DNA of 64,000 bases from Phoronis australis. Taxonomy: Eukaryota; Animalia; Phoronida. The position numbers and the translations under genes are program-made. Where the stretch lies: the NCBI GenBank assembly GCA_002633005.1, contig NMRA01001032.1:2899-66898 (forward strand). Direction: 5' to 3'. Each line of letters starts with the position of its first letter. Position 1 is the stretch's first letter. Shown here one piece after another: positions 3,780 through 46,084 of this stretch. The notes below the pieces were generated by a model that ran no database searches, was not told where the DNA came from, and was given only the letters and a program-made list of their open reading frames with translations.

Positions 3780-3835
3780 ATGTTGTCTTGGCTTGCGTTG
3801 CTCTTAGTGGCCTCGACCGTAACCGGCACTGTCAG
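3780..3835 (+). CDS. Copy 1 exon 1, signal peptide MLSWLALLLVASTVTGTV(R)
   Basis: ATG followed by a hydrophobic core and AG|GTGAGA donor; same 56-nt exon at 46029-46084. An acceptor-like TTTACAG just upstream (~3761) suggests a 5' UTR intron. Confidence 0.8.
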
Positions 3836-4267: not shown

Positions 4268-7200
4268 CCTGGAATGTGGTTTGGGGACCGAAGGCCTGCA
4301 AAATCGCAATAAAGTATTTTTTTTTTTCTATTCTATTTAAACATTAATGACATGCTCCTCTGGGCATTTTCGTAAGAACTGCACTGCACATGTTGTATCG
4401 CGGGGTGAATGGACAGCTCATGGATAAAATGATATCTCTTGTACTGTGTTGAGTTACTTTGAAGTTGCACGGTTGCTTAATTCAGAGTTAAATTAAAATA
4501 ATTCCCCTTGAAATCCTGCAACCCTCCCCCGCTTTGAATATAGATTCGGTCAACCTTGCACGATTTTAATTTAATACTTAACACATCATTGTGAGTACCT
4601 GTAAGATATCAAAGCTATGAAATGAAGCCTCAATTGCATAAAAACATTCCGAATTATAAAGATTTGTATTCAATTCAACGTTTTAAATTCAGCCACAAAA
4701 TATATTCCGATACGGTCAGCCCCTACCAGCCCAGTTGTTTGAAAACTATCGTCAAAATACAGTTAGCTGGCACTGTGTATTGAGCTCCGTTAGACACCGA
4801 GTTTTCATACAGCCCGGGGGGTTGTTCTGCTAGTCACCTCGATGTGAAACTTGTATCAACATGATGAGCTAACGACCGTTGGGGTGCATGCAAAATATGG
4901 GAGCAAACCGACACACCCCTTACCCGGTGCAACCGCTTGGAGGATAAGATCAGATGTTTGAGATTGCTTCCCTCACTAAAATGGACATTCGATTGCTTGA
5001 CACTACACCATACAAGGAATTATTAACCTTGAAAACTGCGCAGACTGTATACGTCTGCTCTCATTATGAGATTTGTTTCCAAAATAGAATCCAGTAATGC
5101 CCGTCTATATTTATTCGGTTTTCTATCAAACGTTTCTCTTGCACTTTTGCAAAGAACTTTTAACATACCAAAATGACAGTAATGTTCTGTCGTTTACAAC
5201 AGGAGTGTGGACGACGGGATGTGGTGCGATTTCGTCATCGTCGGTGCGGGCACCTCCAGCTTAGGTCTCGCCAGTAGACTTTCTGAAATACCATCATGGA
5301 AAGTTTGCGTTTTTGAGAGAGGTAAGTAACACCTCAGTTGATATAAATCTGTTTTTTAATTAGGGGAGAAATCCCCAGTTTGCAGTCCACGGGTGGACTT
5401 AATGGAATTCAGGATTCACTCCTCCACGAACAGGATAAAAAACACCGTCGACATGCCTTCGGTACCCAGTAACTAAACATTTAGAAGTCGTAGTCCGACA
5501 GTAATCTCTACGCTTTTAGCGGTCGTAGATTCAAATCTACGTAACCAACTTGAACACAAAAAATGAGACAGTATCATCAACGTTCGTCTTAAACATACCG
5601 CGTGACACGATCTAGAAACCTAACTTTGTTTGCAACCATGTCTATATCGTACAATGCATTGCACTTCGCAAAACCGCCTTGAGGTGGTGATGTTGTAACA
5701 TCATGTCTAAAATCTCGTGTTCTGTTTCCACCAAGCTCTAATCTATTTAAATTGGCACGGGGTTTCGGTTGGTCATTTCTCCGGCCATCCTCTGGTGTTA
5801 CAGCGTACTTGGAATAACGAGCGCGTGCATCTGATTCACTCATGGAGGGCACTTGAATTATATTATTCCTGGAAGAAGGCATGTTATGAACCCGGGACCT
5901 TTCTGTTGCCAGTCCAGTCCTAGGCAACTGAGTGATATACATTATGCTTTCGGTGGTAGACCATGATATAACCAATTAGTACTGTTCTTTTCATATTTTT
6001 GTGGACCTATACATTCTGTTTAAAAGAAGGGTCCCAGTGGCCTCTTTCTCTGAATTATAAAAACCGTTCACAATGAGACCCTCTTCTCGAAGAGGAGGAC
6101 CAAGATAATTCTCTCCTTCTCCGATGAGTCGGGCTCCCATTTTGCGCAGCTCGCAGCTACTCGTCTACGCTCACCCTTAGCACACGGCTTACCTTGTCTG
6201 CAAACTCTAAAGATATATGCTAACGGAGTTAAAGACATCCAACACTTGAGACATTCGCTATACGTTGACCTGGGAGAGAGTAAGACAATTTGAACCGTGA
6301 TTTGAACCATCCAACCTTTCGACATAACGTAGATCTATACAAGTACGTACTGATCCTGAAGCAGTTAAGTTATATGGACCGTAGGCAAAATTCCCAGAGG
6401 GATCAGTCTAATACGACCACTTGGTATCTTAATATATTGGGATGCGTTTACCTATTTGAAGTTTTGACCTCACCTGTTCACTTTGTCTACAACGTCACGG
6501 TGTTTTGCAATGGTCAATTCATTCACAAATATTGTCACCTGTCGTCCGAGGAAGGCTCGTTTTTGTGAAAAAAGACCGTGCAATGATTAACATGTAAATT
6601 GTTCATGTTTGCGGTTTGGCGCACATACAGCAACTGCCACATAAAGGCGGGTGTTATCAGTCATGAGTAACAAACAGCAGTACTAGCTTTTGTTCATTGC
6701 CATCCTGTTACGTGCTTAAAGCGTTGAAAGTGCGCTTCTACTGTTAAGGATATCTCACTCTCCTTGCCTCTCCCTTGCCCTCCTCACTCAGCTCACTAGG
6801 ATGCCTGCTGTTATTGTCCACATTACAGGCCCAATGGAATCCGGAATGGAGAGCTGGTACACCAACAGCTACAAGTTTACCAGCCCTCACGATCCATTCT
6901 GGCTTACCCAACCGACGCTGAGAACCATGGTAACAAAAGATGGAAAATACCTGACCAACGAAAATAAAGATGGCCGCTTGATCTATATTCCACGCTTCCG
7001 AGGACGCGGGGGCACTTCTCGCGTGTACGGAGCCATAGCAAGACGCGCGAGCCCGGCTGTTCTCGACCTGTGGCCTGAAGGTAATTCTCAATCAAATGTT
7101 AAATAAAACATGCACAATCAATACAGTTAACAATACAGTAGGACCCCAAAATTTGGCTAACTTTAAAACATCGTATCTCATGAACAGTTATAAAAATTTC

Positions 7201-10200
7201 AGATGCAGTACTTTATGTAATATCCTGCATTAGGGATTGTTTTTGAAATGTTCTATTTTAGCATGAGGGGCCACAAAAACTTTGAATTTTACGATTTTAA
7301 TAAATAAATAAAAAACTGCATGAACAAAAACGAATTTAGAAAGCTGTAAGTGCGTTTTAAAGTTTTCATCCAGCACATTTACACCAAGTGAAAAGTGGTC
7401 ATGTTATTGACATCGTTATTTTGTTTGCAATGCACCTTTCGTTTTCCTAAGTTTCACTGAAATGACATGACCACAAGACTGAATCAATTGTAGATTTGAA
7501 AAAAATCAAACATCAAATTGTTGAAATATGTCACTTTTTGGTTGCAAAAATGAAACCACAACACATCGTGAGAATGACCTAATCTATTGTGAAAAAGAGA
7601 TTAACTACCACAAAACAACTAATCGTAATAATGCGGTCGATGTAACGTAGAAGGAATTTAAACTAATAAATGATTTTCAACACTCTCCTCAGCTGTTAGT
7701 GTTTAAGTTCAAACATAACCAATAAAAGAGTTTCTCAAAGTCCTCAATGCAGGTATGATAAAGTATTCACTAGACGTTAACTAATTAGTGCCAACACTCC
7801 TCCTCACTTATGTTAACCGTTGAGCAACTAAAAAACTAATGTTTAACTAACTCCTGCCATGGCCCTGAGTTTTTCGAATGTTTCTCTTGGCAATGGCTTG
7901 GTCAACATGTCTGCTATCATTAGTGCACTACAACAATACATTAAGTCAATAGAATCAGTGCTGACCAAATCAAGGATACAGTGATGTTTGATTTCAATAT
8001 ATTTGGCACGACCATGAAATTTTGGATTGTGACACATGGATATGGCTGCCTGGTTATCCTCAAAAATAGTTTTTGAATTCAAGAACAAGTTTGGAAAGCC
8101 ACATGGCTTCCTGCGCAGCCATCCCCAAGGCAACATACTCCGCTTCAGCTGATGACAGAGCAACACACGACTGACGTTTGCTTCTTCAGCTAACAACTGA
8201 TACAGCCACATAAAAATATATCCAGATGTCGATCTACGTACGACTTCTCCTCCGCAGTCGGAGTTGGAATATCCTACATAGTCCAGGAACTCACTACTTG
8301 GAAATCGCAATCCAAAATTAACCGTTCCTTTCAAGTATCGCATTATCCGCTGAACAGCAGACCAGTGCTGTTAGGTTGGTTTCGAGAAGAACTGAGAAAC
8401 ACGACTCACTGCAAATGGTATATCTGACCTTGTCCACTGACTCAGATATAGTAAACTTCCAACAGCAGACTGATATAATTCCTGATCAAAAGTTTTAAAC
8501 CCATTTCCACAGGGTACTGACTGGCTTACACTCGCTCATACCAAACTTGTCCAGGATTTTGGTCGTGTAACCTGGTTGCGACAAACTAATTGAGCAATCA
8601 CTTGATAGCTGATCAATCACAACCCCCAAGAAGTATTTCGATTCTCTCATGTCAGTTACTTTGAATTTTTACCTTTATTACTAACGTAATCTCAGTTGCA
8701 TAATTATGTCATCGACATAAACTGCTAGCATAGGAGTACCACCATCCAACATATAAATGCATGTATCTTTAACTGAACACTTAAAACCAATGTTGTGCAA
8801 ATGCTCATCCAAAACAATGTTCCAACAACGAGGTGACTGCTTCAACCCATAAATACTTTTGTTGAGCTTACAAACAAGGTTTTCCTTGCCTTTCTCAACA
8901 AATCCATCGGGTTGTCTCATATACGCCTCCTCATGTAACACACCATTTAGAAATACAGTGTTCACATCCACCTGATGAAGCATCATATTTTGCTTTAATG
9001 CAAGAGCAATCAGTTCATGCACAGACTCCTGTCTCACAACAGGACTAAAATTGTCATCATAGTCCTGATCAAAACATGGTGAGAAACCCTGAGCCAGTAA
9101 GAGTGCCTTGTAACGCTGAACACAGCCGTCAGACCCAAGTTTCTCTTTAAAAACCCATTTACACCCAACAACAGAGCGATTTACGGGGGTTCAACCAATG
9201 TCTACACATTGTGTTCCCGGAGTGATTCCAATTCCTTGTCCATAGCAGATCTCCAATTTACCTTGTTAGGCCAGGATAATGCTTCACCCACCGGAATAGG
9301 TTCAGACTTATTTTGAGTAGCGTGAACCCACTCACCGTACCTATCTGGACTGTGTCTCTAGCGGTTCGACCTACGTAACTCTACCGAATCATCAGGAGTG
9401 ACATTCACTTGCGACTGGTTGTCATCCGCCTGTTCCACATTGATGCATTTCTCACTACCAATCTCGGACAGTGCCGTTGGCCTTTTATGCTCGTTCTCAA
9501 GTTCGAATATGTACTCGTCACACACAACATCACGAGTAAGAATGATCACGAGTTATATCATACACACGATATGCCTTACTATCAGGTGCATAACCCCGAA
9601 AGATGGTCTTTCTAGATTTTGAATCAAACTTTGAACGTTCGTCCTTAGGGACATGTGCATATGCTCTGCAGCCAAAAACACGTAGAATATCAACACTCTG
9701 TTTCTCGCCCATAAAGGCCTCAAATGGAGTTTGACCATTTACTGCCCTCGTAGGACTTTGGTTTCGCAAATAGGTAGCAGTGGAGACTGCTTCTGCCCAA
9801 AATTTCTGGGCAAAAACGATTCAGCGAGCGTTGAGCGTGCAGTTTCAACAAGGGTGCGATTCATTCTTTCGGCAACTCCGTTTTGCTCTGGTGTCTTCGG
9901 AACAGTAACTTGGTGTCTGATTCCCTCTCGTCTGAGGTACTGTTCAAACAACTTTGAAATGTACTCTCCTCCATTGTCAGATCTTAAAGTTTTTAGCTTC
10001 TGACCAGTAAGATTCTCAGCCATAGTATTCCATTCTAAAAAGGAATCGAATACCTGATCCTTAAGCTTGATGATGTACAACCAAGTATACCGGGAATAAT
10101 CATCGACAAATGTCAGAAAGTATTCACATCCACTGAGGGAAGCTGTGCTCATTTTACCGCAAACATCAGTGTGCACAAGCCCCGGAGGGACATTGCTACG

Positions 10201-13200
10201 ATGGGCCATGCCTACTGGAAAGCTGTCTCTGTGCAGTTTACCTTGAACAAAAGGCTTACAAACTCTCAGTTCACAATCCGACTTACAGTCAAGTCCAATT
10301 GTCATCTTATTGCGTATCAATTGTTTCAAACTTTGGCCACCTAAATGACCAAAAGGACGATGCCACAACTCAAACTGTAAGTTAGTCTCATCTACTGACA
10401 CAGACTCAGTCATGGGCTTTACATTTAAGTAATACAGGCCATTGACTTCACGGCCTTTTGCAACTTCTTTACCAACATCCTTCATAATGTTACATTCAGT
10501 ATCAGTAAATTCTATGGTACCAAGTTTGCTGGTAGCTTGTGAAACGCTTAACAAACTGAATGACAGGCCTGGTACAAACAGAACATTTTCTCCAACACAC
10601 ATTTTGTGCTATTCCCGTTCAGGGAATCAAGTTCGAGTTCAACCGCTCCTTGGCCGGTTCCTTTTAAAACACGTCCATCCCTAAGCGTTACGTCTCTATT
10701 GTCCTGCAGCTCCGTAAACTCGGTATATTTTGCTCTGTCATTGCATATGTGTGTTGATGCTCCCGCGTCTATGGTCCATTCACAAGTTGACCTAGCACCA
10801 GTAAGCATTGCATTTATCAGCAAGCCAATAGACACCTCACTGTCACTGTCTTTAGTCGCTATGTTGGCTGTATCGGCTTTGTATTTTGTATCACTGCCAT
10901 CTTTGTTTGGACAATTACGTTTTATGTGACCATACAATTTACATCCATAACACTTAGGACCCTTGTTTGACCTAGCCTTTTCGCGAGCGACAAGTGCTTC
11001 CCCGGCTGACTGTTCGCTAAGTTTCCGCTCTTCGTGTAATAAACGCTCAGTCACTAGTTCCATCCTAGGCACCTCCTCGCAAGCCTCCAATGCTGTAACC
11101 AACACACCATACATATTGGGAAGACTTGCAAGAAGATGCACAACACGATCTCGATCGTTTACTGGACCACCAATTACTGCAAGTTCGCTAAAAAGCTCAG
11201 TCATGGATTTGATAGGAGCACTGACGTCATCACCAGCATTTAACTTCATTGAATATAGGTTTTTACGTAAATGCAGCTCATTTGCCCAAGTTTTCTTTTG
11301 AAACTGGTTCTGAAATGTGTGCAACACGTCACAGGGATCCACAGGGTCTCCTAGTATGTACAACAGACTAGTGTCCACTGAGAGAACTATGGTAGCACGT
11401 GCTTTGTCCCTTCTTACATTGAATTTCTCAAGTTTTGAAGCATCATCTCCCGAAGAAGGAACTTCCTTACCCGCGACAATGTTCCACAGGCCATCTTTCA
11501 TCAGCGCCATTTGACACCGAACCTTCCACGTCGCATAGTTTTTACCAACCAGCGGTGAAATTACCCGAAATCACTGATTTTTCCGCCATCTTTGATTTTT
11601 CAAGTCCAAAACAACGTCACTAATCAACCTATTAGTGGCACACAAAAATCGTCCATAACCTTTTGAAATATGTCACTTTTTGGTTGCAAAAATGAAACCA
11701 CAACACATCGTGAGAATGACCTAATCTATTGTGAAAAAGAGACTAACTACAACGAAACAACTAATCGTAATAATGCCGTTGATGTAACGTAGAAGGAACT
11801 TAAACTAATAAATGATTTTCAACACAAATTCTGCAGACTTTCCACTATCAAAAAGTGTACTAACCTTTATTTTGTTGAAATCTGTAGTTTGCAGGTATTT
11901 GTCTAAATACAGAGACGTCTCGAGAAGGTCCCACGTAACCGCCACTGTTAAAATACACGCCCATTTCGTATGTGATAGATACTGGCTGGTTAACCGTAGA
12001 AAGTTTTACATTTGTTAATGCAGGATGGAAACATGAAGACATGACGTATTACTACAAGAAAGTTGAGGACCATTACTGCCACTATGATTCAGAAGAAGCC
12101 ACCGGAATTTCGTCAGCGGATTGCGAGAAATGGCACGGTAAAGGCGGGCCGATGCAACTCAATTCACAGTTAGAGGTACCGTACCGCCAGGATTGCACAT
12201 CCCTACACAAGAGTTAAAAGGGACTCTTTTTTGGCTTTGACTCACTTTGAATAATAGACCGGGCTCAACATATGAAACCAAAGGGTACGACCGTGAACCC
12301 AGTTATCTTCTCTTTCCCTAATTTTACAGTCAAGGGGGGAACGTGGGTTAAAAAGGTAGAAGGGTGTAGGAGTCGAGCGGGCTCAAGGATAATCTTACGT
12401 ACTTCCATTTACAGGAAGCCTTCCACCTGTTCCCGAGAGAGATGAAATACCTTTGTGAAGACAAGACGAAGCCTTGGAATGGTTACAAGCCTGATTACAA
12501 CGGTCCAGTGGAGGACAGGTACAAATACTGAACACACGATTTCCCCATACAGTTAGCAACGATAAACAAGAGCTTTGGAACAGGGAAGGGCGAACAGCAA
12601 CGAATTTTCTGGAGGTTGTCGTTGCGTAACATCCTCACTAATAGTCGCCTGACATATGCGGGGTTGCTGGGGGGTTGGTTCAATCTGGGTCGAAAATTTT
12701 TTAGATTGACGGGCGTGTAACACCCTCACTAAAAATCAGGCAAATAGGTGCGCAAGAACGTGATGTCAATATTTGTGACAACTGTAAGGAATTCTATATA
12801 GGACTCGCACAGAGATGCGTCTGTGACAGGTTGAAAAAACATCTCACCTCAGAGAAAAGTAACATATATAGGCATTGTATTAGCTACAATCACCAATTTC
12901 AAGAATGACGATCAATCACCAGCATTTCACACGTGATTATATTCTATTGTTGGCACTTGAATAGTCGGTGCCAAAATATAAGACAACAAATTTAATTTTC
13001 AATAAATTCGAAATTGTCACAACTGTTTCCTGTTGCGTGAAATAATGGACTCAACTAAGTTCTCTGATTCTCCCACGCATTTATGCATTTGTTTACTCAC
13101 AAGCGTTGTGCTTGTCTATCATCATATCGTTATAATGCTCTTCTCTTTGACTAATAACATTTCATAATAAACTATATAAAACAACGACCTTATTTCAGTG

Positions 13201-16200
13201 AAAATGAACAGGAACTTGGTCTTTAGGTTAGGGGCCTTGCATGAAAAGATGCCTATTTATTTTCGAGACTATCATATCGAGAATTCAACGGAGGGTTTGC
13301 GATCAGTTTGTATCATAAGCAAAAGCAGAATTAGTAACGAAAATCCACAGTAAAGCAAATACACTATTTTCACAAGTCCACAAATGTGTAGAAAACTTAA
13401 TGTGCTGGACGAGTGGTCCCTATTTACGTAATCAGCCCATAATGTCTGCACTTCGCAAGGTTTTCACATTCTTTAGTACGATCGCAATGTGATGTCGAAA
13501 GCTATCTTTAAATTCAGAGTAACAAAATAACAAAATAAACATTCTCAAATTACTGATACAATCTGTTATTTGAAACATAAAAGAACTAAACAAATGTTTT
13601 ATACGCTACTGAATGAAGCGGGCCCCCAGTAATTGCAATAATGTCTTTGAGCCTCCAATATTATAAACGGTCCAGTGAACTGACGTGTCATTTTTGATCG
13701 CGTACGTAACACAGAGTGTCGAATAAACATACAGATGCAGCTGCTGTGGTTTCCAACATGGGGTTATGTATGGGGAGTGTCGACGCATACTGGACCCACC
13801 GCTACCGATTAAAGTCCATAAAATACCGTATTTGGTATTGGTAATACTTCTTAGCAATAGTGAAGACAAGCATGAAGCGCATTTGCTGCAATTTATTTTA
13901 CAGAATAAGCTGCAGTGTCTTCCAGCAGTACAAACTTCGCACTGATGAAGACTATAATCCGACTGAGGAAGCTCGCGCCAATCGCGCCTCTCAAACAGCA
14001 CGCGGGAGTAGTTTCACTGGCTACTACAAAGAAAACGCCAAGAAACCTTATCTGGCTATATCTGCACCAGTAACAGGTACAGTACCGATTTTGTCCTCCG
14101 CTGCGCCTTCATGACGCTCCGTTCGTATCGTACTTCCAACGATGTTGTTGAGTAGCGGGGAGGGCATATATGCAGTTTTGTAAAAATTGAGTACTTTGTG
14201 ACAGATTTTTGCAATTTAGTACACTGTCAGGTATAAGAAAAGAAGATTTAAAAAACAAAGTGTTCTGACTCCCTGGTGATCGCTAGGCACAAAATTCAAT
14301 GTGGTTGCCGCCAGAATGGAAGTTGGCGTATTTCGGCTATTATTATCACTAGAACAAATTATGTCATGTTTTCAATATTTTTGGGGGCGGGGAGTTCATT
14401 TCTGGAGTTCAGTTTAAGTTTTGAGGTCAATTCAAATGCAAAGTGATAATCTCAAGGCAAATGTCATTCACAAATAACTCAAACTTATGTTTGTTCTCAT
14501 AGACGTTACATCGTTTATTTAATGGGTATATCGATTTGATTGGCTACACAAAATCCTAAAATTACCATTTTTCAAAACCAGATTTGCACAGCATAGAACT
14601 TTATTTAGCTGACTGTGAAAATACTTGTAGATTGAGACATGTAGAAACATCCTCCTTCACTTATAAAAATGGCACATGTGTTACTACTGGGAAGAGTAGG
14701 GAATTTCTTTCTCGTCAGTGGCTGTATCGCCTATATCTCTTAAAGATCTTCTTAAATCGGAATGGTTTATTTTAAGGAACGTGACAACGAATGACAACGG
14801 CTTCCAAACGGATCCAATTACCGCTGTGCCTCCTAGTGGTAATTTAACTACCTGCGTTTTCCTTCTTGTCTTAATGTGTATCCATTGACGGACATTTCTG
14901 AAACAGCAAATTGATTTCTATAAAAGAATCAATGACACGTTTCTATTCTCGGAAGGGTTGAAGATATTGTATGCTATTCAGTGGCCATAATGATTATTTG
15001 CCACTCTGTTTGCGTTATCAGCCAAATAACACTAAAGATTATGTGTTCCAAATGGGACGAAGACGTTTGACTGGGTCCAATATCTGTGTCTCCCTCTTGT
15101 GGCAATTAATTTTTCAACGGTTGAATATAAGCTCTTGATGGGTTTAAAGGAATTTTTGGGAATTAAGTTATAATGATTCAGACAACAGCATCGGTCATGT
15201 TTCAGATGGATTTGACCTAGCTTGTTTCCCCTTGTGAACTTCCTTCTGTTTTCTTGTTTTTGTTTTCTTTGTCGTCTGCTTTTCCCTGTCCTCCAAACGT
15301 TTTGAAAATCATGTTGAAACGTGGCAGGTGTGTTTCTATTCTGAACTGCTTTGCACCCCCTAGAAGTTATTTCTAAGTTAACGAGCATTGGCCCGTTTAA
15401 GTCGGAATTTTTTAAAATGATGACGCAATGCACACCGAGGGGTTCATTTCAACGTTCTGCAGTTGCAAATAAAACGTTGCAAAGATGTTCATCAGGCTCA
15501 CCTTCACACAAGAGTAATCTTTAGCAAATGATATAGAAGCCGTTAAAGTATGCGATTCCCGAGGCGGCGGGGGCCAATTTGGTTCCCCTTTGACAAACAC
15601 ATATCTGGTTACAGGTTGGGACGCTTTGTTGGCGAATGCGATCTTATAGAGTTGCCCAGGACTCCGTGATATTTCCAGCAGGCGGCATTACTGTTTGTAG
15701 CAGAAGAACTGCAGCAGTTTGGGTCTTTTAGGGTTATCCGATTCTGAGCCATTTTACCCGCGGAAGTTACAACATTTCCTTTATTCGTTAGTCAGCACTA
15801 AAATAATGAGCAGACGCTCTTCATTTTTGGAGTTAATATAATCGGCTTCCAGTGGCCGCATTTGATTGAAAACCGTAACAAACATTAGAAGGCACTAGAC
15901 ATTAGGTTTTGCCTGACCGTGCACACACCACTGGACTTACGGTCTTTCGTCCACTCTGAGGAGATTTGTATGAGCAGAATAAAAGGCTGCTGGATATTTC
16001 AGGTCAGAAGTGCCACACATGGCAGAATGAACTTCATTCTGTCTCATTTTTGCTCCGCTCGCTTCCACCGATCAGCAAGTCAAACTGAAAATTCGGTGGC
16101 ATAAAACGCAAAATTGACACTTATCAACTCAAAGCCACCACTTCTTCTACAACGTACAACAAGCGATTGAAGTACTGCTTCCTATATGCTGGCGTATGTT

Positions 16201-19200
16201 AGTGATAAATTTGAGCTGTGCATAACTGTGAAAATAACAAAAAAAAATTGCGGGTTATTGCCAGGATAAAAACACGTTTTATTATTTCCTGATTAAGATT
16301 GATGTTTGAGATGCAACTCCTGAAAATCTCTATTATTTCTGATAAAATGGCATGTTGTGGGAGTCTATTCCAGAGTAAAACAGTAAATGGGAAGAACGAG
16401 TTTGCGTAGTATACAGTGGGAATGTGTGTTCTTTCAAAGGTATGAGAGTGGGCATTGCGTGATCTAGAAATATTTAGGGGTCTAGGGTATGTGTTAGGAA
16501 TGGCAACCAGTGTGTACACTGCCTTGTACATGTGAAACCGTTTCTTTTGAGCACGTCTTTCTTGAAGAGTGGGCTAGGTGCGAGTGGTGAGCATAGACGT
16601 AACAAATCAGCTCTGGAGTGATCATAATGGATGAACCTGGCTGCTGAACGCTATATTCTTTCTATCTTGCCAATATTGGAGCGTGTGGAGGAATACCAGA
16701 GGAGTGATAATCAACTGTGCGCCTCATCAATGAAGTGTAGGCCAAGGTGTTTGTTTCACGAAGTGCACATTTGAGGTTCCGCTTAATGAAGCCAAGAGTT
16801 TGTTTGCCTTAGAGATGATTGCGTCTATTTGAGTGTTCCATATTGAATTATTGGTAAGAAAGAGCCCAAGGTAGGGTGCATGCGAGTGGTGAGATGTGAA
16901 GACTGTGGCAGTATATCCTGGGGTAAAGTTTTCTATGGACACGTAGAATATTGCATTGGAAAACGACGAGATCCGATTTCCAGGATTTTCCCGGTAGGCT
17001 AGGAAGTCTAAATCTTTTTGATATTTTTTGCAAAAATGGGGGAAGCAATACGTCTTTAGAGGATTGAATCATCGAAAAAGACACGGACGTATGAAACAAT
17101 GGAATCAGGAAGGTATTTAATATATAGTATGAGGAGTGCAAGACCAAAGGCAGAACCCTGGGGCACCCCTGACTGAACTGGAAAGGAATTTGAGAACTTG
17201 CCATTGACGACGACACTTCCTTGTGGATGCTCGAGACACGACAAATATACTTCTATAGATTGCACACGTGTGGTCCAAAGTGCTTACATCCGTCTAGGTT
17301 TTATGAAATTCTGGATTACTTGAGGGCTGTTCGAAATCGCAGCAGATTAATCAGTCGCTTATCAACAGTGTAACAATGGTAGAAGGAGTTGCCGTTTTAA
17401 AGAAAAGTTTATATGCTGGCGAAGTAGTGGACTTACAACATGGTCGTAACTACCAACAAACCACAATCACTTAACCTATTTGCAATGTATACCATAAAAC
17501 TGCCGCCAAATTCTATTATGTGCAAGGTAGTCGTGGCTTGTGTACCACCTCATTAATTTAGAGAGTGTCCAATAGACTTTAGGGATATATACGCACTAAG
17601 TACAGTTCGGAATACGCATTGGAAAATTGTAATCAATTTCCACACCATATTGGATTAGTACGCTCTTGCTCCGATTTTGCCTGAAATTCACCCTAGGCCG
17701 GGTTTCTTTGAAGAGGCTGAGTGAAAACCAAACATGGTGGTACTTTTGATTTAGTCAGCAAGTCGTTCAATGACTGAAAATTTGTTCAGACTTGTTTGGC
17801 TATTGTCATCCCGAAATTCGCACCTGAAGGCAATTGAGGTCTCTGACAAGGACGACTTTTGTTCTTCATTATAAAGCTCATGAGTTGAGGAAATTTCTAT
17901 TGCTCGAAAGCTACATTTGATATGTATGAGGTAGCCCACTGCCAACTCCATGTTCTGATATGATGTATACATCTCTTCCGGCTTATAATTTTCTATCTAT
18001 CATTAACCCTACATGAAATTGTTACTGCATGTGTAGAGATCCTGTTCAACGAAGAGCGCAAAGCCATTGGAGTGACCTTCTGGGACGAAGAAAATGGGCA
18101 GACTAAAAAGGCATTCGTCCGTAAAGAAGTCATCGTTGGTGCGGGCTCTTTCGATACACCACATTTACTTCAGGTACACTTGATATTTACATATAAGCTC
18201 ATGCATTTCATGTTTTAATAACAATAACAATAACAATAACAATAACAATAATAATAATAATGTTTATTGTACATCTTAGGCTTTGCCTACTCATACATAT
18301 ATACATAAATTCAAACATATATTCAGAATATTTGCACGGAGAGCAGTTCTTCTCTTAAAGCCATAGCCCTCTGAATATACAATGCGAGGCGCTGGATGCT
18401 GTCATGATTTTTCTGTTGGAATAACCTAACAAGAGAGTAGTTAACACTGACAAGCTCTGGAAGAAGATTTCGTGTAAGCACTTCAAGAACAGGGCATCGA
18501 CACATGAAATGAGGCCCATCTTCAATTTCACCCAGACAGCCTATGCCGCATATTCTCTCACCTCTAGGAATACCCATATGTCTCCCTTTCTCTATATTAA
18601 GTGAGTGAAGTGAACACCGAAATTGCGCAAGTATTTTTCTTGAATAAGCGCTTAAACAATTCACATATTGCTCGCTGACAAGATCACGTTTAATAAGACT
18701 ATAAAATTCATATTTATTTGAGCTATCTATTTCCAGTTGTCATTCCTGTACGCCATAATCCAGTAATCTCTGATTAAATACCATAATAAACTCAGCACTA
18801 TTGCCTGGGCCAAATAACCACACTTCTCCATAGCCGTACCTATACAAAATTTCTTTGACACGGTGTGCCCAGTTACAATTACCATTTTCACTTTGTTCCC
18901 TTAGCATACTATAACATTTCAGTGGGTACCTATGTTCTTCCATATCCAGAAATTTTGTCCAATTGATGATTGGTTTACACATATAGTTTGTAATTAACAA
19001 TTGTCTCCCACATTCACCACGAGCCATAGCATTTGGCGTTTTAATACTCAATCTCAGAACATATTTACAGAAATCATTATGAACTTTTTTTAATAAATTC
19101 ACGCATTGATGTTTCTCATATTTCTGCACCATATGTTAACATGGGCATTATCATAGAGTCAAAGAGTTTAAAATGCACTCCATGGGAAATACAGTTAAGT

Positions 19201-22200
19201 TTTGACAGAGTGGCTTTAATAACGTTCATTGCTTTTCGAGCTTGGCTTGCAAGTACTCTACAACACTCTGTCCATTTAAGTCTGCAGGAGAATGTGACTC
19301 CTAGGTACTTGTACTACGATTTGGTATCTACTTTCTTATCGCCAAAACCCACCTTTCATTACTTGAAAGTATGCTCCCTCGCTTAAATACCACAACATTC
19401 GTTTTATCCAAATTAACTTGCAAATTCCAGTCTCGACGAAACTTTTCGAGGACATTGAGCTTCATCTGTAGCCCAGCAACGGTATTCGACACCAGCACTA
19501 AATCATCAGCAAAAAACAAAGAACCTATTTCACAACCCTGAGAGACACGTATACCTCTGCCTACATTTTCTCTAATATCTGACACTAATGTGCTAACAAA
19601 CACCGAGAACAGCCTGGCATTAAAACACATCCTTGCCGGACACGAACTGTACAGTTGAAATATGGTGTGGTCTGGGACTGTACCATAACACACGATTGTA
19701 TAGAGTCGTATGTACTGCGCAAAATGTTAAATATTTTTCCATGCAAACCTTTGGTTAAAAAGGCATAAAATAAACGGGAAATATCTACACTATCAAATGC
19801 CTTACTAAAATCAACGAATGCACAATATACTTTCCCATTCCGTTTAGTGACATGTTTCTGGAAGATACACTGTAGGTTAAAAATGTTATCGATTGTAGAA
19901 TACCCAGTCCTAAAGCCTGCTTGTTCTTCCGGGATACATTTCGTATTATTCGACCATTCAATTATACGAGAATAAAGAATAGTTGTAAAATTTTTATTAA
20001 TACTATCTATAACGGAGATCCCTCTGTGGATTAAATATGTCTCCTTCTTTGATACTTTTTGACCATTGGGATGGATAATGCCCGGTATGTACATGTATTA
20101 TGACGTATGACATTTCACGAGTAAACTATTTTTCATCCACTATCATGTGCTCTTTTATAGTTTTATTTCAGTGTTCATAATGCTTACAATTGATTGACTT
20201 CGCCGACATTGTTGGGTCAACCAGCCAAGACATCTCAAAGGCTTTTGGTGACGACTTCCTGCTAACAAACCAATCAGATGCTGGTTGACCTTACAAAACC
20301 GGCGAAGTCAATCAAGTGTAGCCAAATCTTTTAAATATCCCGTGAAAGACAGAAGCAACCAAGAGTTTTCATATATGCAGATGACGACGTAAAACTGATT
20401 TAAAGAAAATCCTCCAGAAGCACTTCCTGAAAATGTAGGCCCGATTATGCGTGCCTGTTGTTACCGAGGTTGGAATTGACAGTTTGCAATCTAACGAATA
20501 AGCCTAGTATACTAATTATTATATTGTTGATAGAACAGATGTTAAGTAAGTAGTAAACCAACCAACCAACCATCTAACCCATTTACCAGCCAACCAACCA
20601 TGCCAGCCAACGAACAACTGACGAAGCAACCAACCGAAGGACATTATACGTTTCCTTCGTACATTCCGTGTTATGAAAATCTTTCGATTGAAACTTGCCT
20701 GAAATACATAAATTTTGCTGCAGGTGAGCGGAGTCGGGCCTAAAGAGCTTCTCAAAGATATCGGCGTAGACCTTGTTGCTGAGAACAAGCATGTGGGCCA
20801 GCATTTATGGGACCATATCTCGGTACCGTACGTTCTAAAACTTAGTTCAGCCTCCGATGACTTATGCTGCGGCACTCCACCAAAAGTTGACATTGACGGT
20901 ACCGAATACAATACAGGGGATTTGGCCAGCATCAACGGTCCATTTTCCTGGATTTTGCATTATCGTTCTAACGTTTCCCGTGTTCCCGCTTCGATGTCCG
21001 ACATCCAGCTGTATGTGATGGGAAACTCCAAGCTATTTGACGAGACAGGTAATGTTATGACGATCTACAACAACGAGTCTAAAGGTCAAGACTGGGATTG
21101 TGTCCCTGTAATTTGTTGCTTAATACTGTAGCAGTCTAAATCACCTTCATATTATTTGGGAATCTTCTCATTCAAGTCTCTATAGTTCGGTGACACCTCT
21201 TTGTTTACACAAACTTCGTTGAAACACGTCTAGACGTTTTGTTTGAAAGCTTGATACTGGTTCTGTCTTAGTGTCAGAGTAATATCCTTTCTTCAGGTCT
21301 GCAGCTATGTAGTTAAACACCGAGAGACATAACAAACAAACAAACAAACAAATTAAAACACAAGCTATGTTTTGAGACTGCAGTTATCATTATCAGGAAA
21401 TAAGTTGAATGATCATATACATACCGCAATAGACAGTGAAATACACGTGACAGCGGGAAGAGGGTCATACAAGCAGAGAGTGTGAATGCAACACAATGTA
21501 GGACGCCCGCAACCCTATAGAAACAGAGCCAGAGTGCTCATTCAACACAGTTTTTTTGACTGATCAATAGTGATTCAGGGGACAGATACCTTGTGAGTCT
21601 GCTGCTGTGTGGAGACAATAATTCATCGTCTCAGAAGTGTCATAACTAGGTTAAACTCCTCTTTGGAAACGACGCGCTTACAATAATTATTTTGTCGTCG
21701 TTTGATTGGTTGATCTAATCACACTGCCCTGACACCTTGTGGGCAACAAAATATTTCAGGCTTTCTTTTCTCCAACATTGAAATTAAAATTCTTAATGAA
21801 AATGAAATTGTATTCTTGAACACTTTGTTCATTGGACTGGATAATGAATTACCCAAAGTTCTTATATCACCTCACGCCCTGAGGTAGCCGCGGACATGTA
21901 AGATAGGGGACATGTGTCCAATGATTGTCCATCTGGCCGTCTTTTGACGTTAGTCTTCATACAGCTAGCTGAGTGGTTACCACTACATGTAAGTGTGATC
22001 CTCACTATTTGGTATACACCTTTGTTGCTCCATAAAATAAATGGATATCGTTTCATTCAATTATTCATCCCCACATTCATTCATTATCCGTGCTTTCTCT
22101 CACTTATTAAGACATTCATTCATTCATTCGTTCGTTGTTCACAGGTGCGCTATGCACAGCTGACCCTCCTGAATACGAAGATGATGCACAAAACAAGCAA

Positions 22201-25200
22201 TACGAGGACTCCAGCGATACACTCGAAGGTATATCCAAATTTCGTCAATTTCTTGACCAAGATATTTTACTAACAGGTGTATTGAGTGAAGACGAGACAT
22301 GAGCAGTTTCGAAATATAACCGTCCTTTATAATATCTCTTGGTGATCTATTCTTGCTGACAAATATGCCAGAAGTTTGCACGAGTCTCTGCCAAATCAAT
22401 GAATAGAACTCTCCGTAAACAAGGTTATACATGTAAATATTGAATTGAATTCCAAGTCCCACGCGAAACCCATACATTCTAGCATTAAGGCTTGCTTTCC
22501 AGAGATTTCACATGACTAACATTGGGAATAGCTGGTTGTCCACTCGGATTAGTTTTGATTGATATCTTTTCAGTTTCAGTCTGAGAGTCACTTTTGACAA
22601 CCTATAAAACTGTATATTACGAGTTTTTCAACAAGGCATATTTGGGTGCTAAAATGATATTTTTGTCTAAGAAATATTGGTTATGTAATTAATAAAGATA
22701 GTTCCATCGAAGTTAACCAAAATTTATGCACATGTACTTTTAAATCCTGAGTGTCAAACTTGTTTACATGTACTTTTGATATCTACGTGTATTTTTAGAT
22801 GATGCTTACCTCTTCTGGTCTATGGTCAGTGTCCTGTAAGGCTTCTAAAAATTCTGATATCATATTGTAACCACCAATGATATGAATAGATAAGATCATG
22901 TGGTTTTTATTAGCTAATTAGCTAATTGTTGACTGAGTACATCGTTATAATTTGGCAGAAGTCGGGTGTTGCAGCACCTGTAGTCTGTCGTTAACAGAAA
23001 ACGTTGTTTTTGTGTGTTGCGGCGAACATTTTACCCCGATGATGTGGAATAGAACCAGATGTCCCACTTTTAATACAGATGTTCTGCTTTTCAATCAAGT
23101 TGTCCCGTTTTCTCATTCTCGAATGCTGATAGTTATGCAACTGGTGTTCCAAATAACAGTATCTCTTTCTTATGAATGTTTGATTTTCCAGAAGCCATTT
23201 TCCTTAGTAATATAACAATTATAAAAATATTTTCCAATGTCTCTTGTTCATTGTAACACACCTCACTAATTTTAATTATTGAAAAATGGGTTTATTCCTA
23301 GATTTCGCTTTAATGTAATGAGCTATCCACGTGCTTCAAATCTACAAAAACATGTTTTGCCATGTTTATCTTTCGGTAAACCCTTATCCCCATATTTCGG
23401 ATAGATAATTAGGGTATTTGGTTTATCACGGTTTTTGTACATGTAAGTGTCATTGAACACTGATTTTTACTAAAAAATGTAGATGTATCAAACGGATGAA
23501 TGCCTGACTAAATTCTTCACAGCAACTCTGAGACATTCATTGTCTAAAACCATTGTCTTTCTCCGGTAGCAATCCTTTGAATCTGATGGCTTAATTAGTT
23601 ATTTATGTAATGTCTACCTCTGTATCATTTTCTTTTTTATCACATCCCAAATTCGTTGACATTTCAAGCTAATTAGTTGATTGTTAGATAAATAATGAGT
23701 CAATTAGTGCATGCAAAATAAAATTTGTATATGAAATTAATTTCTTATCTTTTGTTTCTAGTATAATCATACACCATCGAGAGTTCATGGAGGACTTTTT
23801 AATATGACTCTGATGCAATGCGCTTGAAAGCAATTCGGTGAAAAACGGAAGATTTGCGAAAAGTTTTACTATAGTAAATTTTTCACTTTCCCATTGCCTT
23901 AGTGTGATGAAAAAAGACATTCCATTCCTAGAGTTCTACGATAACTTTAAAACAATGTGTATACCTGTGAGAAAAATATCATTTTGCTTTCTGATATTGA
24001 CTTCTTTAGGTACTATTCGTATCATCGATCAGTGGCCTGAGTATCGCGGCCATGTCAAAGCAGTCACTTCACACATATTTGACAAGCCGGAGATAGAGTA
24101 TGGCTGGGGATACACTGAAGATGGGGTACCGACAGAAGAGTTCAAGAAGGTCTCCAAGCTTGTCCGAGATCAAATTCGCCTGTTGCGCAACATGTTCTTT
24201 GGAAAAAACGTCAGCAAAGAGTTAAAAGAACTGGTTTTAGACGAAGTTGCACCAGGGCTGGATATAGATACGGACGATAAGTTGGACGCATGGATGCGTG
24301 GAATGCTGGTGTCTGCACTTCACCCTGTCGGTACATGCAAAATGCCAGACTGTGCTGATGAGTTTCTACAAGTAAGAGGAGTTTCCAATCTCAGAGTGTG
24401 TGATGCCTCAGCCTTCGCAACACAAACCGACGGAAATCCAGCCGCTACTCTATTCGCTATGGGCGAAAAACTGGCAGACATGCTCAAGTTCCAATATCTG
24501 AAATACGTAAACGTGGCAGTTCGTAAAGAATTAGCGATTCCAAGAGATAAGAATACCTTCAATTCCGAACTACCCCCCGGACATGCTGCAGTTGACATGG
24601 GTCCAGTGAAGTCAGCTTCAAATTGTATGGACGTATCAGTGTCCTCTGAATGGATTTCAACAGGAAAGGGTACTTCAGCTTTGATTGTCAAATGGTCTTT
24701 GGTATGCGTCAAGGACACCAATGAGCGTCAGATTGCAGACTTAGTAGCTATGGCTACATTGGGAACTGATCCAAGAGACGGTTGCAATGCTCAAGGTTAT
24801 CCAAAGTTCAACAGACCAGAAGCGACTCCCGATCCAAGAGAGCCAAGCCCAAAGCATAAAATATCACGTCACGTTTTTGCCGTGTGGTGCCAATCGTTCC
24901 CTGGTGTGGATCCCGATACACTATGGACACAAGCTGGTTCGTGGAACGGAGAAGGTGGCAGGTATGTGCTCAGACAATTTAGCTGAAATGGTATACTATA
25001 TGTAAAGCAACATGAATTTTAATATGTATATAGGTTGGTCAAGCGCATGCAGGACCAGAGCGACAAGTCTCATGCTGTTTTACAATACATTTACCTATAA
25101 ATAATTACCATAATCTACTTGGAAATAAAAGAAGTCTGTGATACTTATTATAGAAGACAAGAATCCAAACATAATATTTCTGTACGTCACCTGTTTCTTA

Positions 25201-27345
25201 ACATCAGTTTACGCATTCGTACTTATTATTACAGAATTCCTGGGTCTGAGCACTGCTTCACCCTAAACTGCCAGCCGGAGATGTGCTCCATTCTTGTACA
25301 CGTGGATGACTCCAACCGGGAATGGATTTACAAAGAGCCCAACATAGACCTTCCATTGGTGGACTACTATTCGACAAAAAAGGTGGTCGACCTGAACCCA
25401 GGATCTTCGGCATTCTTCCGCACGGGATCGATGATCTCCAATCCAGGTACTGACTGGTATGAGGAGCTGGCCGGATATCTCCTCGAGAGTGTGTATTGGA
25501 GCTCAGGTCGTCGCTTGTCCCGTGAGTATCCCCCGCTCAATACACTCCCCGGCTGGTGGACACAGCTGTCCAACGGCCTTCTCTACTACGAAACTAAGAA
25601 CCAGATTTATTCAAGTGAACACGTGGCATCTTTTGACCTGGATAATACCATCAGCAAAACAAAAAGTGGCGAAGATTTTCCTGTCGACGAAAATGACTGG
25701 ATGTTCACGTCTGACAAAGTCAAACCCAAAATACAAGATAACAAGAACAAGGGCATCAACAACGTAATCTTGAGCAACCAGGTAAAACATTCAGACGTAA
25801 ACCAGCTACATCTACATTTTCAGGGTATTTTAAGGCAACGATGTGATATCCAAAAAAGATCTGGTGGGTTTGAATATTAACCACCTAATAACGTAAGTGA
25901 GCGGATCAATTCCTTTTAGTAATAATTCAAACAATATACATAGGCTGAATTCAAACGAGGTGGCTAAACTTTGTAAATAGTTCACTTACGTAAAGTTTTA
26001 AAGTGTGTGCAGGCTCACTTCGGTGGCGGTCTTGGTAAGGCCTACAGATCATCCATATAGAATGCAGCAGATGCATTTTGTGCCTTTTGCTGATTATTAT
26101 AGACTTCCATTCTGCAGTTAAGTGGGGTAGGGTAGAATGCAAACTAAATGATGGTTGCACTAACTCCGTCTCAGTGATTGTTCAAAAATATGTAGAGCCT
26201 CCCTTGGTAACTGTACATCATATCCACCCCATTACGTATTTGTTGCAGGCAGGCATCGGGAGCGGCTCTCAAAATAAAGACGAGTGGATGTCAAAGATTG
26301 AAGCCATCACCACTGAACTGGGTGTACCCATGTTTGTCCTAGGTGCCACAGGGTACAACAATCTTCGCAAGCCTGACCCTGGAATGTGGACATATTACAG
26401 GCATGAGTATATTTATCTTGTGCACGTTGTTTTTGGCCCCATGGATTTCAGATTGACGGTGTTTCCTTCAAATTTTGCTTGCCTAGCATATAAAATATGT
26501 AATAAAGATAGCTAAATGTAGTTTAGAAATTTCTCAGTATTTCAGTTAATAACAACTTTTTAACACTGCAAATCTCTACTTTTCACATTTTTTGCACACC
26601 GTCTCTGCTTAATATTATGTTTTATCTAATTTCCCTTCGAGGACCGCGTGAAAGACTATTTATTCGCTTACCTAAATGTCAGAATTAAATGTTAAGGTTA
26701 CGGGAGACAAAAAATGAGGGGGGTCGAAATTCAAACCAGATGCTGGACTGCACGCTCTGTTCTCTAAAATATGGTTAGGAATTATATTTTATATCCTCTT
26801 TGGCATTATGGATTGTCAAAAATGGAACTTGTAGGGAAACATCGAAATCAAAATAAAAGGAAAACGAAAAGATCATTTAGAGAACTGTCACAGATTTTGA
26901 GATTTCGTCGTGAACATTTACATTGAAAAAAATAAAATATTGTTGTTCTTAATAGCGTTGTTTTCATACAAAAGTGTCTTTACCTTTTTGTAAATATCCT
27001 TAAAATGAAATACGGTAGTCATTTGACCCAATTAATAGGAGAATGGTATAAAATGAACGATTGTTACTTTCACACAGTTGAATTCTGTTAGCTTTGTTGT
27101 TTTTTTGTGTAAAATCTTTACAATATTTTTGAATGTCCTACTTAACTTACATACAATGTCCTTACAGCTGCACACTGAATCAGTTCAAGACCATTGACAA
27201 GTCCACTGCGGTGTATGTTGGGGATGCGGCTGGTAGACCAGGAGATCATAGCGACTCGGACAAAGTGTTTGCCGAGAACGTTGGTATCGCTTTCCACACC
27301 CCTGAGGAGTACTTTGAAGGACAGAGGGGACACACTGAACTTTAA
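3780..27345 (+). CDS. Gene copy 1 (13 coding exons, 1076 aa): signal peptide + GMC oxidoreductase + SRPBCC/START-like + PNKP-like HAD phosphatase + HTEL
   Basis: Exons 3780-3835, 5203-5321, 6829-7080, 12024-12175, 12415-12518, 13904-14076, 18037-18173, 20724-21048, 22145-22228, 24010-24961, 25235-25781, 26249-26400, 27168-27345 join with matching phases. Introns are GT-AG except one probable GC-AG. Total 3231 nt, ending TAA. GMC motifs appear in canonical order. Exons 1-8 are confirmed by the paralog downstream. Confidence 0.85.
4191..4267. repeat. (AC)n(AT)n compound microsatellite in intron 1
   Basis: Directly visible. Confidence 0.98.
5203..5321 (+). CDS. Copy 1 exon 2, GMC FAD-binding Rossmann start
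   Basis: SVDDGMWCDFVIVGAGTSSLGLASRLSEIPSWKVCVFERG; CAG acceptor, G|GTAAGT donor. Confidence 0.92.
6829..7080 (+). CDS. Copy 1 exon 3, GMC N-terminal domain
   Basis: GPMESGMESWY...IYIPRFRGRGGTSRVYGAIARRA...WPEG, a variant of the GMC RGxxLGGSSxxN motif; conserved in the paralog. Confidence 0.92.
7519..7682 (-). repeat. Copia 3' LTR
   Basis: TG...CA ends; adjacent CTCTCCTCA is the polypurine tract on the minus strand. Confidence 0.95.
11661..11824 (-). repeat. Copia 5' LTR
   Basis: Seven mismatches to the other LTR by my count; followed on the minus strand by PBS-like GGTTATGGAC. Confidence 0.95.
12024..12175 (+). CDS. Copy 1 exon 4
   Basis: GWKHEDMTYYYKKVED...WHGKGGPM matches GMC GWxxxxxxPYFKKxE and HGxxGP motifs. 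Confidence 0.92.
12415..12518 (+). CDS. Copy 1 exon 5
   Basis: EAFHLFPREMKYLCEDKTKPWNGYKPDYNGPVEDR (GMC DxNG motif); paralog exon at 54946-55049. Confidence 0.9.
13904..14076 (+). CDS. Copy 1 exon 6
   Basis: ISCSVFQQYK...ARGSSFTGYY...ISAPVT; paralog exon of the same length at 56904-57076. Confidence 0.9.
16141..17270 (-). mobile_element. 5'-truncated decayed LINE (CR1/L2 group), RT 3' part
   Basis: SGVPQGSAFG, FFDD and C-terminal NSFFPFTVLLWNRLP; many frameshifts. Confidence 0.75.
18037..18173 (+). CDS. Copy 1 exon 7
   Basis: EILFNEERKAIGVTF...RKEVIVGAGSFDTPHLLQ matches GMC EVIxxAGxxxxPxLL. Confidence 0.93.
18217..20100 (-). mobile_element. 5'-truncated LINE (RTE-X-like) with (TTA)n/(TTGTTA)n tail, copy 1 intron 7
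   Basis: EEQAGFRTGYSTIDNIF, AFVDFSKAFDSV, RQGC, LFFADD, C-terminal HSLNIEKGR...C..C...HF...CP; AATAAA then a TTA tail on the minus strand. Absent from copy 2 intron 7. Confidence 0.85.
20182..20323. mobile_element. Small hairpin MITE (Tourist/PIF-like ends)
   Basis: TTGATTGACTTCGCCG...GGTCAACCAGC pairs with GCTGGTTGACC...CGGCGAAGTCAATCAA; right end TGTAGCC. Confidence 0.65.
20724..21048 (+). CDS. Copy 1 exon 8
   Basis: VSGVGPKELLKDIGV...VGQHLWDH matches GMC SGIGP and VGxNLxDH motifs. Confidence 0.93.
22145..22228 (+). CDS. Copy 1 exon 9, acidic 84-nt symmetric exon
   Basis: Pyrimidine-rich CAG acceptor, open phase 1-1 frame GALCTADPPEYEDDAQNKQYEDSSDTLE, G|GTATAT donor. Not confirmed by the paralog within the window. 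Confidence 0.65.
24010..24961 (+). CDS. Copy 1 exon 10, GMC C-terminal domain plus start of SRPBCC-like region
   Basis: PEYRGHV...PEI, HPVGTCKM, VRGVSNLRVCDAS, GNPAATLFAMGEKLADML; reading frame stays open ~150 aa further to an AG|GTATGT donor. Confidence 0.92.
25235..25781 (+). CDS. Copy 1 exon 11, SRPBCC-like C-half plus N-half of PNKP-like phosphatase
   Basis: Phase-2 CAG acceptor matches the exon 10 donor; VASFDLDNTISKTKSGEDFPVDENDW (HAD motif I in PNKP context) and ILSNQ (motif II). Confidence 0.88.
26249..26400 (+). CDS. Copy 1 exon 12, PNKP-like phosphatase
   Basis: AGIGSG...KIEAITTELGVPMFVLGAT...RKPDPGMW (motif III). Donor is CAG|GCATGA, or a weak GT at 26407. Confidence 0.88.
27168..27345 (+). 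CDS. Copy 1 exon 13, phosphatase motif IV and HTEL-stop
   Basis: YVGDAAGRPGDHSDSDKVFAENVGIAFHTPEEYF, then EGQRGHTEL-TAA. Confidence 0.92.
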
Positions 27346-32918: not shown

Positions 32919-33025
32919 CCTATACATGTTCTGTTTATGGTGAGAAGTCATTGTGTACACTGTTTCTGCAGAACTGTTTGAAGTACTAGCCAGGATCCCA
33001 AAGAACATCTTCCCTTCTACACTCA

Positions 33026-46028: not shown

Positions 46029-46084
46029 ATGTTGTCTTGTCTTGAGTGGCTCTTAGTGACCTTGGCCATAACCAGCACTGTCAG
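46029..46084 (+). CDS. Copy 2 exon 1, signal peptide MLSCLEWLLVTLAITSTV(R)
   Basis: Homologous to 3780-3835, including the donor and intron start. Confidence 0.8.

Follow-up and report, generated by a model that had tools for sequence, protein, structure and literature searches.

Gene structure and domain organization

The stretch of Phoronis australis DNA analysed here, 64,000 nucleotides of contig NMRA01001032.1 (positions 2,899 to 66,898, hereafter the window), is eukaryotic and carries on its + strand, at 3780–27345, a gene of 13 exons and 12 introns whose exons join into a single open frame of 1,076 residues closed by one stop. The encoded protein begins with a signal-like N-terminus, followed by a GMC oxidoreductase, a linker of about 265 residues (628–892), a PNK3P-type HAD phosphatase and a C-terminal HTEL (Table 1). 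A first-pass annotation, made from the letters alone, had proposed that the linker hides a helix-grip (SRPBCC/START) domain, probably in two copies of which the first is internally shortened; the motifs it quoted between the GMC part and the phosphatase all appear when positions 23814–24986 and 25101–25880 of the window's + strand are translated. We refer to the two candidate copies as D1 and D2. The helix-grip stretch sits in exons 10 and 11, and across 11 relatives the linker is 40–75% identical, depending on the sub-region.

Expression was assessed with stranded raw RNA reads from three runs carrying the same species label, which lie on the expected strand and cover the exons. The junction inside D2 (24961/25235) is spanned by eight reads in two of the three runs, the next (25781/26249) by 13 reads in two runs and the last (26400/27168), whose intron at 26401–27167 is of the GC-AG type, by 22 reads in all three. 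The exon 9–10 junction was seen as loose read ends only, and the junctions upstream of exon 9 were placed from splice signals and 68–80% identity to relatives, not from junction reads. Because the last three junctions are spanned by reads and loose ends were seen between exons 9 and 10, one transcript carries the end of the GMC domain together with the linker and the phosphatase. We are therefore highly confident that the gene is a spliced and expressed fusion of a GMC flavoenzyme, D1–D2 and a PNK3P-type phosphatase.

Table 1. Features of the fusion gene, with positions in the window
Feature	Residues	Position	Strand	Remarks
Signal-peptide-like N-terminus	1–18	3780..3835	+	Exon 1; hydrophobic, hydropathy 2.5
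Exons 1–5		3780–3835, 5203–5321, 6829–7080, 12024–12175, 12415–12518	+	Open frame, splice signals, homology
Exons 6–9		13904–14076, 18037–18173, 20724–21048, 22145–22228	+	Open frame, splice signals, homology
Exons 10–13		24010–24961, 25235–25781, 26249–26400, 27168–27345	+	Junctions 10/11, 11/12 and 12/13 spanned by RNA reads
GMC oxidoreductase	26–627	5222..24488	+	PF05199; exons 2–10; His572 at 24321, Asn610 at 24435
D1	628–722	24489..24773	+	Likely shortened helix-grip copy: strand-helix-strand-strand-helix
D1–D2 linker	723–749	24774..24854	+	Conserved Cys726; P-x-F motif kept in protists too
D2, first part	750–785	24855..24961	+	First strand with Trp760/Gln762, first helix
Intron inside D2		24962–25234	+	273 bases, GT-AG; junction reads: six in run X6, two in run X7
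D2, second part	785–882	25235..25526	+	Tyr829, Ser831, Lys833, Arg847, C-terminal helix
PNK3P-type HAD phosphatase	912–1068	25614..27318	+	Exons 11–13; Asp919 at 25635, Asp1037 at 27223
C-terminal HTEL and stop		27331..27345	+	Predicted ER-retrieval signal

The helix-grip domain D2

Residues 750–882 (D2) are firmly assigned to the helix-grip/SRPBCC fold, within the bacterial Polyketide_cyc2 or PYR-PYL-like branch, because the sequence and structure evidence agree. A D2 profile that included the protist and rotifer-type members, run against 177,635 PDB sequences, matched 2LE1 (E 1e-6), 3CNW (E 9.1e-4), 3F08 (E 1.4e-3) and 7TMU (E 0.11); the fifth match, an endolysin at E 0.62, is unrelated. Narrower linker profiles found 2LE1 at E 0.0014–0.0019, and the exon 11 half of D2, searched alone as a single sequence, found it at E 0.073. 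A match over 40 residues to the N-terminus of chitobiose phosphorylase (E 0.013–0.077) disappeared with the wider profile. Pfam matched no family on residues 628–892, those of the SRPBCC group included, and the gathering score of PF10604 (Polyketide_cyc2) was reached by none of four window pieces and by none of the aligned linker sequences (0/6 and 0/12); the ESM Atlas gave no usable match for D2.

The structure model was computed, from a 10-row alignment, for a relative's linker, which shares 68% identity with the window protein in D1 and 74% in D2. In the best model, with a predicted local distance difference test score (pLDDT) of 74 and a predicted TM-score (pTM) of 0.80, D2 consists of a strand, a helix, four further strands and a C-terminal helix, in keeping with the helix-grip layout of a curved antiparallel sheet around a long final helix. 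Foldseek matched two entries, 3F08 and 3CNW, at E<=0.001; helix-grip proteins made up all 39 listed rows, including untitled rows that we take to belong to helix-grip families; among these neighbours were PYL receptors, PR-10 proteins, ARO/CYC proteins and norcoclaurine synthase. An exhaustive structural search (VIA) ranked 7TMU at Z 7.2, against a safe limit of 8 for the tool, with a root-mean-square deviation (rmsd) of 3.2 over 110 aligned residues, and 3CNW at Z 7.1; the helix-grip matches span model residues ~121–245, and a few unrelated folds reach Z 5.4. The proposal of a hidden helix-grip domain is thus borne out by both the profile match to 2LE1 and the Foldseek comparison.

The bacterial proteins concerned are Tfu_2981 (2LE1), XoxI (3CNW), Q6HG14 (3F08) and YPO0625 (7TMU, 'SRPBCC family protein'). 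They share with D2 a Y-x-S strand and an acidic-loop motif, and for 7TMU, 3CNW and 2LE1 the likeness in fold amounts to Z 6.4–7.2 and rmsd 3.2–3.5 over ~110 residues. In contrast to these proteins, D2 misses PF10604, carries cysteines, sits inside a predicted secretory-pathway enzyme and is shorter than 3CNW, with a deletion of ~10 residues after the first helix. The two also differ at predicted pocket positions. Across 21 D2 sequences, Trp760 is kept in 20, Gln762 in 19, Tyr829 in 21, Lys833 in 20 and Arg847 in 21, and Ser831 is kept as well; in 3CNW and 2LE1 the counterparts of Lys833 and Arg847 are Ile/Leu and Trp, respectively. Tyr829, Ser831 and Arg847 are the residues that we take to match Y120, S122 and E141 of PYR1. 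These PYR1 residues are described as lining the pocket (PMC9028234). Lys833 and Arg847 probably face the pocket, judging from the strand periodicity and the alignment register with PYR1. Basic residues thus stand where the bacterial proteins have hydrophobic ones. Together with the conserved Tyr and Gln, these Lys and Arg residues suggest a polar, basic lining of the predicted pocket and an anionic ligand of D2, not the hydrophobic one that the first-pass annotation had envisaged.

The plant PYR/PYL/RCAR abscisic acid receptors have the predicted fold in common with D2, at 8–15% identity, but their GLPA gate and HRL latch are both missing from the window protein, which has LNC in the gate loop. 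Indeed, LNC occupies this loop in all 15 animal-type copies and none of them has the latch. D2 is also fused to its phosphatase, a HAD enzyme, while the receptors are chains separate from theirs, a PP2C. Among the 21 sequences, GLPA or GLPR was found in the two protists only, in a loop whose correspondence to the PYL gate is partly our assumption.

D1 as a likely shortened copy

The slot before D2 differs in length between animals and protists. In animals D1 measures 90–95 residues and, in the model of the 68%-identical relative, forms a strand, a helix, a hairpin and a helix, elements that recur in a low-confidence full-length AlphaFold model (pLDDT 36); it is likely, on these models, to be a helix-grip domain without the middle strands. 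In Diplonema and Paramoeba the same slot, with the same flanking anchors, holds a segment of 120–131 residues, and this protist D1 matched D2 in hhalign at 78–80% over 109–121 columns (E 1.8e-5 and 1.6e-6), with a score of 35.1 against a shuffle maximum of 17.8. The direct comparison of animal D1 with D2 is far weaker: with 12 sequences, hidden Markov model (HMM) and hhalign searches gave nothing (0.3%), and it took 15 and 21 sequences to bring out a signal, which reached 8.5% (E 0.004, score 21.5) over the last hairpin and helix, although this score exceeded all of 100 column shuffles (maximum 18.5) and the reversed control (12.3). The structural searches listed no match for D1, which they barely tested, and the single-sequence PDB search gave nothing useful for it. 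The two-copy proposal therefore stands as likely through the full-length duplicate in the two protists, its weak side being the direct animal match. We conclude that D1 is probably a shortened tandem copy of D2, and it may be a remnant unable to form a full pocket.

The flanking enzyme domains

The GMC assignment comes from PF05199, matched in exon 10 at E 3.6e-19; PF00732, seen on relatives, was matched together with PF05199 in one that is 82% identical in the GMC domain. The active-site pair His572/Asn610 is kept in all 16 sequences compared. The flavin adenine dinucleotide (FAD) motif GxGxxG reads GAGTSS here, a small residue replacing the final Gly at a position that varies across the subfamily, and the SSING motif reads SRVYG, with Tyr where most GMCs carry Asn. 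The nearest solved GMC structures are those of choline oxidase and the choline dehydrogenase BetA, which share the His/Asn pair. However, relative P0006 fell short of the choline enzyme cut-offs (TIGR01810, 169.8 against 732.1; PRK02106, 207.4 against 605), and Ser stands in place of the acidic residue behind the DH motif in 16/16 sequences, in alignment with a Glu of 9LQ0 that we take to be the choline-binding residue. By both measures the domain is not a choline dehydrogenase or oxidase. The subfamily also stands apart from BetA in database searches: a GMC-only query, with 7,995 scored candidates, gave 51 matches at E<=1e-40, of which 45 (down to 1e-71) belong to the subfamily and six, beyond an E-value gap from 1e-71 to 1e-44, are ordinary choline-dehydrogenase-like proteins of 28–30% identity.

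The phosphatase (HAD IIIA) was recognized by PF08645 (exon 11, E 1.4e-11) and by alignments to mouse PNKP. The HAD catalytic residues Asp919, Asp921, Asn966 and Lys1008 are present in 16/16 sequences and Asp1037 in 15/16. The domain has PF08645, TIGR01664 and all catalytic residues in common with the mammalian PNKP 3'-phosphatase. The DNA contacts of PNKP, given in PMC13640680 as K183, V184, K226, K303 and K304, are in contrast largely lost: K183 is replaced by Glu, V184 by Asp and K226 by Ser, and the K303/K304 basic loop is deleted. Lys occurs at the K183 position in three and at the K226 position in two of the 16 sequences, and an aromatic residue at the F185 position in all. The window protein further differs from mammalian PNKP in its predicted lumenal location and in lacking an FHA domain or a kinase; the stop lies eight residues past the HAD domain, no kinase domain follows, and the score for the bifunctional PNKP model TIGR01663 was 136.3 against a cut-off of 502.8. 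Several database entries of the fusion nevertheless carry the name PNKP.

Predicted location in the endoplasmic reticulum

Three independent features suggest that the protein resides in the lumen of the endoplasmic reticulum (ER): the signal-like N-terminus, the HTEL end and the cysteines. A hydrophobic N-terminal segment is found in most complete family members. Binding of HTEL by a human KDEL receptor is described in PMC2140024, and a C-terminal xEL or DDL is present in 12 of the 15 animal-type fusions and in 19 of 49 family members, GMC-only ones included. Seven cysteines lie in the linker and HAD domain; six are invariant in 15/15 sequences, and Cys792 and Cys802 are lost together in 4/15, a pattern that suggests disulfides and fits a lumenal protein.

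Relatives and origin of the fusion

The linker profile, searched against 1.84 billion proteins at E<=0.001, gave five matches: one animal-type fusion, Paramoeba aestuarina, Diplonema papillatum, Adineta ricciae and a spurious one, an immunoglobulin-repeat protein of Sycon (P0049), which was dropped. The order of domains is GMC-D1-D2-HAD-Polyketide_cyc2 in P. aestuarina, whose sequence is N-terminally partial, GMC-D1-D2-HAD in D. papillatum, where a longer gene model also includes a partial Polyketide_cyc2-like domain, and GMC-HAD-Polyketide_cyc2-D2 in A. ricciae. The three modules occur together in Mytilus, Dendronephthya, Antedon, Anneissia, Amphiura, Diplonema and Paramoeba and, reordered, in Adineta; the fusion is thus spread over soft corals, mussels, echinoderms, rotifers and two protists of two supergroups. 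The GMC-only query named Antedon, Anneissia, Amphiura, Dendronephthya, Diplonema, Adineta and Rotaria as members, and its subfamily matches included 17 with PF08645 and five with PF10604. Five entries (P0046, P0048, P0074, P0076 and P0089) have an extra canonical Polyketide_cyc2 domain beside the phosphatase that passes PF10604; this extra domain, found in Paramoeba and the rotifer-type group, is weakly related to D2 (hhalign 16–29%). A metagenome scan also yielded one intron-free GMC-only member (L001:112-1995) at 62% identity, which begins with a signal-like stretch and stops directly after the GMC domain.

In a quick tree of the GMC domain, which excluded P0003, P0051, P0046, P0067, P0090 and P0091, the 15 animal-type fusions form one clade with an SH-like approximate likelihood-ratio test (SH-aLRT) value of 100. 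A value of 99 supports the grouping of the window protein with the soft coral Dendronephthya. The tree intermingles fusions with GMC-only forms, and this pattern fits an old fusion that may repeatedly have lost its C-terminal part. No named prokaryote, plant or fungus is among the five linker matches, and a pattern scan of 185,579 prokaryote genomes and viral contigs, a method that finds close relatives only, revealed no relative. With 12 introns in the gene, the same fusion in several animal phyla and two protist supergroups, and no prokaryotic relative found by these searches, the horizontal origin suggested in the first pass is not supported as a recent transfer from bacteria, plants or fungi; the domain may have come from bacteria long ago, or have passed between eukaryotes.

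Other features of the window

A tandem paralogue occupies window positions ~46030–61193 on the + strand and runs off the window end, so that its own linker lies past that end; most of its exons are 75–85% identical to those of the fusion gene and its intron positions match. A DNA contig that matches the linker at ~85% identity and has a longer intron may represent the tandem paralogue or a diverged allele. Between the two gene copies, at 29000–31830, lies a decayed coding-like stretch with repeat-like flanks, probably a DNA transposon relic; two of its open reading frames were tested and had no Pfam match. Intron 3 contains a Copia-type long terminal repeat (LTR) retrotransposon (7521–11825, − strand) with broken gag, integrase and RVT_2 frames lying between 163-base repeats that are 96% identical, and relics of non-LTR reverse transcriptases (PF00078) occur at 19588–20097 (−) and 32990–33505 (+). 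The window also has a 757-base gap at 37183–37939 and, at 49139–49773, an exact 316-base direct repeat flanking a single N at 49457, which is probably an assembly join.

Discussion

Both enzyme domains of the fusion retain their catalytic residues in alignments, and a helix-grip domain with a putatively basic pocket lies between them. Our working hypothesis, held tentatively and with somewhat less than even confidence, is that the protein is an ER-lumen enzyme acting in succession on a small phosphorylated metabolite: the phosphatase would remove the phosphate as a first step, the basic D2 pocket would hold the anionic substrate, and the GMC flavoenzyme would then oxidize the freed alcohol. 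The substrate would presumably be a sugar, polyol or nucleoside phosphate, and the order phosphatase before oxidase is likewise provisional.

A number of findings weigh against this hypothesis. In a close relative the HAD domain still scores above the cut-off of TIGR01664, the DNA 3'-phosphatase model (158.5 against 107.65), and some true plant DNA 3'-phosphatases also have no basic loop. The phosphatase and helix-grip part is absent from many GMC proteins of the subfamily, PF08645 being found in 17/45, and rotifer-type copies keep D2 while their HAD motifs have partly decayed; the GMC-only forms and the decayed rotifer HAD together indicate that the modules are not obligately coupled. Three of the 15 animal-type fusions have no xEL end. 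As to the linker, pLDDT exceeded 70 in only one of five models, the other four lying at 44–62, model residues 146–170 are below 50, no structural match reached Z>=8, and animal D1 has no detectable similarity to protist D1, 24 of 100 shuffles reaching the score.

Other readings of D2 were considered. It might be a third enzyme, a lyase, dehydratase, isomerase or cyclase that converts the GMC product, which we regard as unlikely. Its fold neighbours do include norcoclaurine synthase, lachrymatory factor synthase, a fern hydroxynitrile lyase and ARO/CYC cyclases, with Tyr829 and Arg847 invariant and Lys833 and Gln762 nearly so, and a red-algal lipoxygenase is reported to lose its lyase products when its SRPBCC part is removed (PMC11507377); yet the predicted pocket positions hold no conserved Glu or His that could serve as general base, fold alone shows no function, and many GMC-only relatives manage without D2. 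That D2 is a ligand-gated switch on the phosphatase or oxidase to which it is joined, resembling within one chain the plant PYL receptor and its phosphatase, seems more doubtful still. PYL receptors are among the nearest folds, the two protist D2s carry GLPA or GLPR in the loop matching the PYL gate, a motif described in PMC9028234, and Tyr829, Ser831 and Arg847 appear to correspond to pocket positions of PYR1; but the animal-type copies, with LNC in the gate and no latch, do not follow suit, the phosphatase is a HAD enzyme unrelated to PP2C, and D2 persists in rotifer-type copies beside a decayed phosphatase.

We consider it similarly doubtful that the HAD domain still acts on the 3'-phosphates of nucleic acids or nucleotides within the secretory pathway, apart from the oxidase, with D1–D2 mainly a spacer. 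The cut-offs of PF08645 and TIGR01664 are both passed, the nearest solved structures are those of mammalian PNKP and the aromatic residue at the F185 position is universal; against this, the signal-like N-terminus, HTEL and likely disulfides place the protein away from nuclear DNA, and most basic DNA contacts are gone. A mere spacer is also hard to reconcile with D2 polar residues that are invariant across animals, rotifer-type copies and protists, or with the movement of D2 together with the enzyme on reordering. Least credible to us is the version of the first-pass annotation, in which a horizontally acquired helix-grip pair captures a lipid, sterol, polyketide or other hydrophobic ligand for the oxidase. 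The closest solved relatives by sequence are bacterial, the distribution is patchy, and amphioxus lipoxygenases bear PYR/PYL-like SRPBCC domains for which a bacterial origin is proposed in a preprint (bioRxiv 10.1101/2022.05.18.492404). However, the replacement of hydrophobic by basic residues, the single animal clade of the quick tree and the lack of named prokaryotes among the five linker matches, or of any close relative in the prokaryote and viral scan, all argue against it.

The lipoxygenases are a parallel in another sense, for in amphioxus (bioRxiv 10.1101/2022.05.18.492404) and the red alga Pyropia (PMC11507377) one to five PYR/PYL-like SRPBCC domains are reported to be attached to an oxidizing enzyme of a marine eukaryote. 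The enzyme is a different one, there is no phosphatase, and lipoxygenase domains are not among the five linker-profile matches. A literature search, with subscription journals largely outside its coverage, found no paper on a GMC/helix-grip/PNK3P fusion. The architecture and the helix-grip subtype are new, although built from known parts.

This study brings to light a helix-grip subtype missed by Pfam, within a conserved four-domain enzyme that databases label as uncharacterised, PNKP, choline dehydrogenase, ecdysone oxidase-like or sorbose dehydrogenase. His572, Asp919, Lys833 and Arg847 are handles for direct tests, and the natural GMC-only and reordered forms are built-in controls. If the working hypothesis of successive dephosphorylation and oxidation is right, the protein would represent an ancient family of eukaryotic ER enzymes. 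In this family a phosphatase of the DNA-repair type would have moved to the secretory pathway and become tied to a flavin oxidase by a helix-grip domain that binds anions and serves to channel or sense a phosphorylated metabolite, possibly with PYL-like gating in the protists. This broader picture, which we put forward with the same reserve, points to paired ER reactions in corals, mussels, echinoderms and protists, and to a lumenal pathway of two or three steps that may operate in marine invertebrates, rotifers, amoebae and diplonemids.

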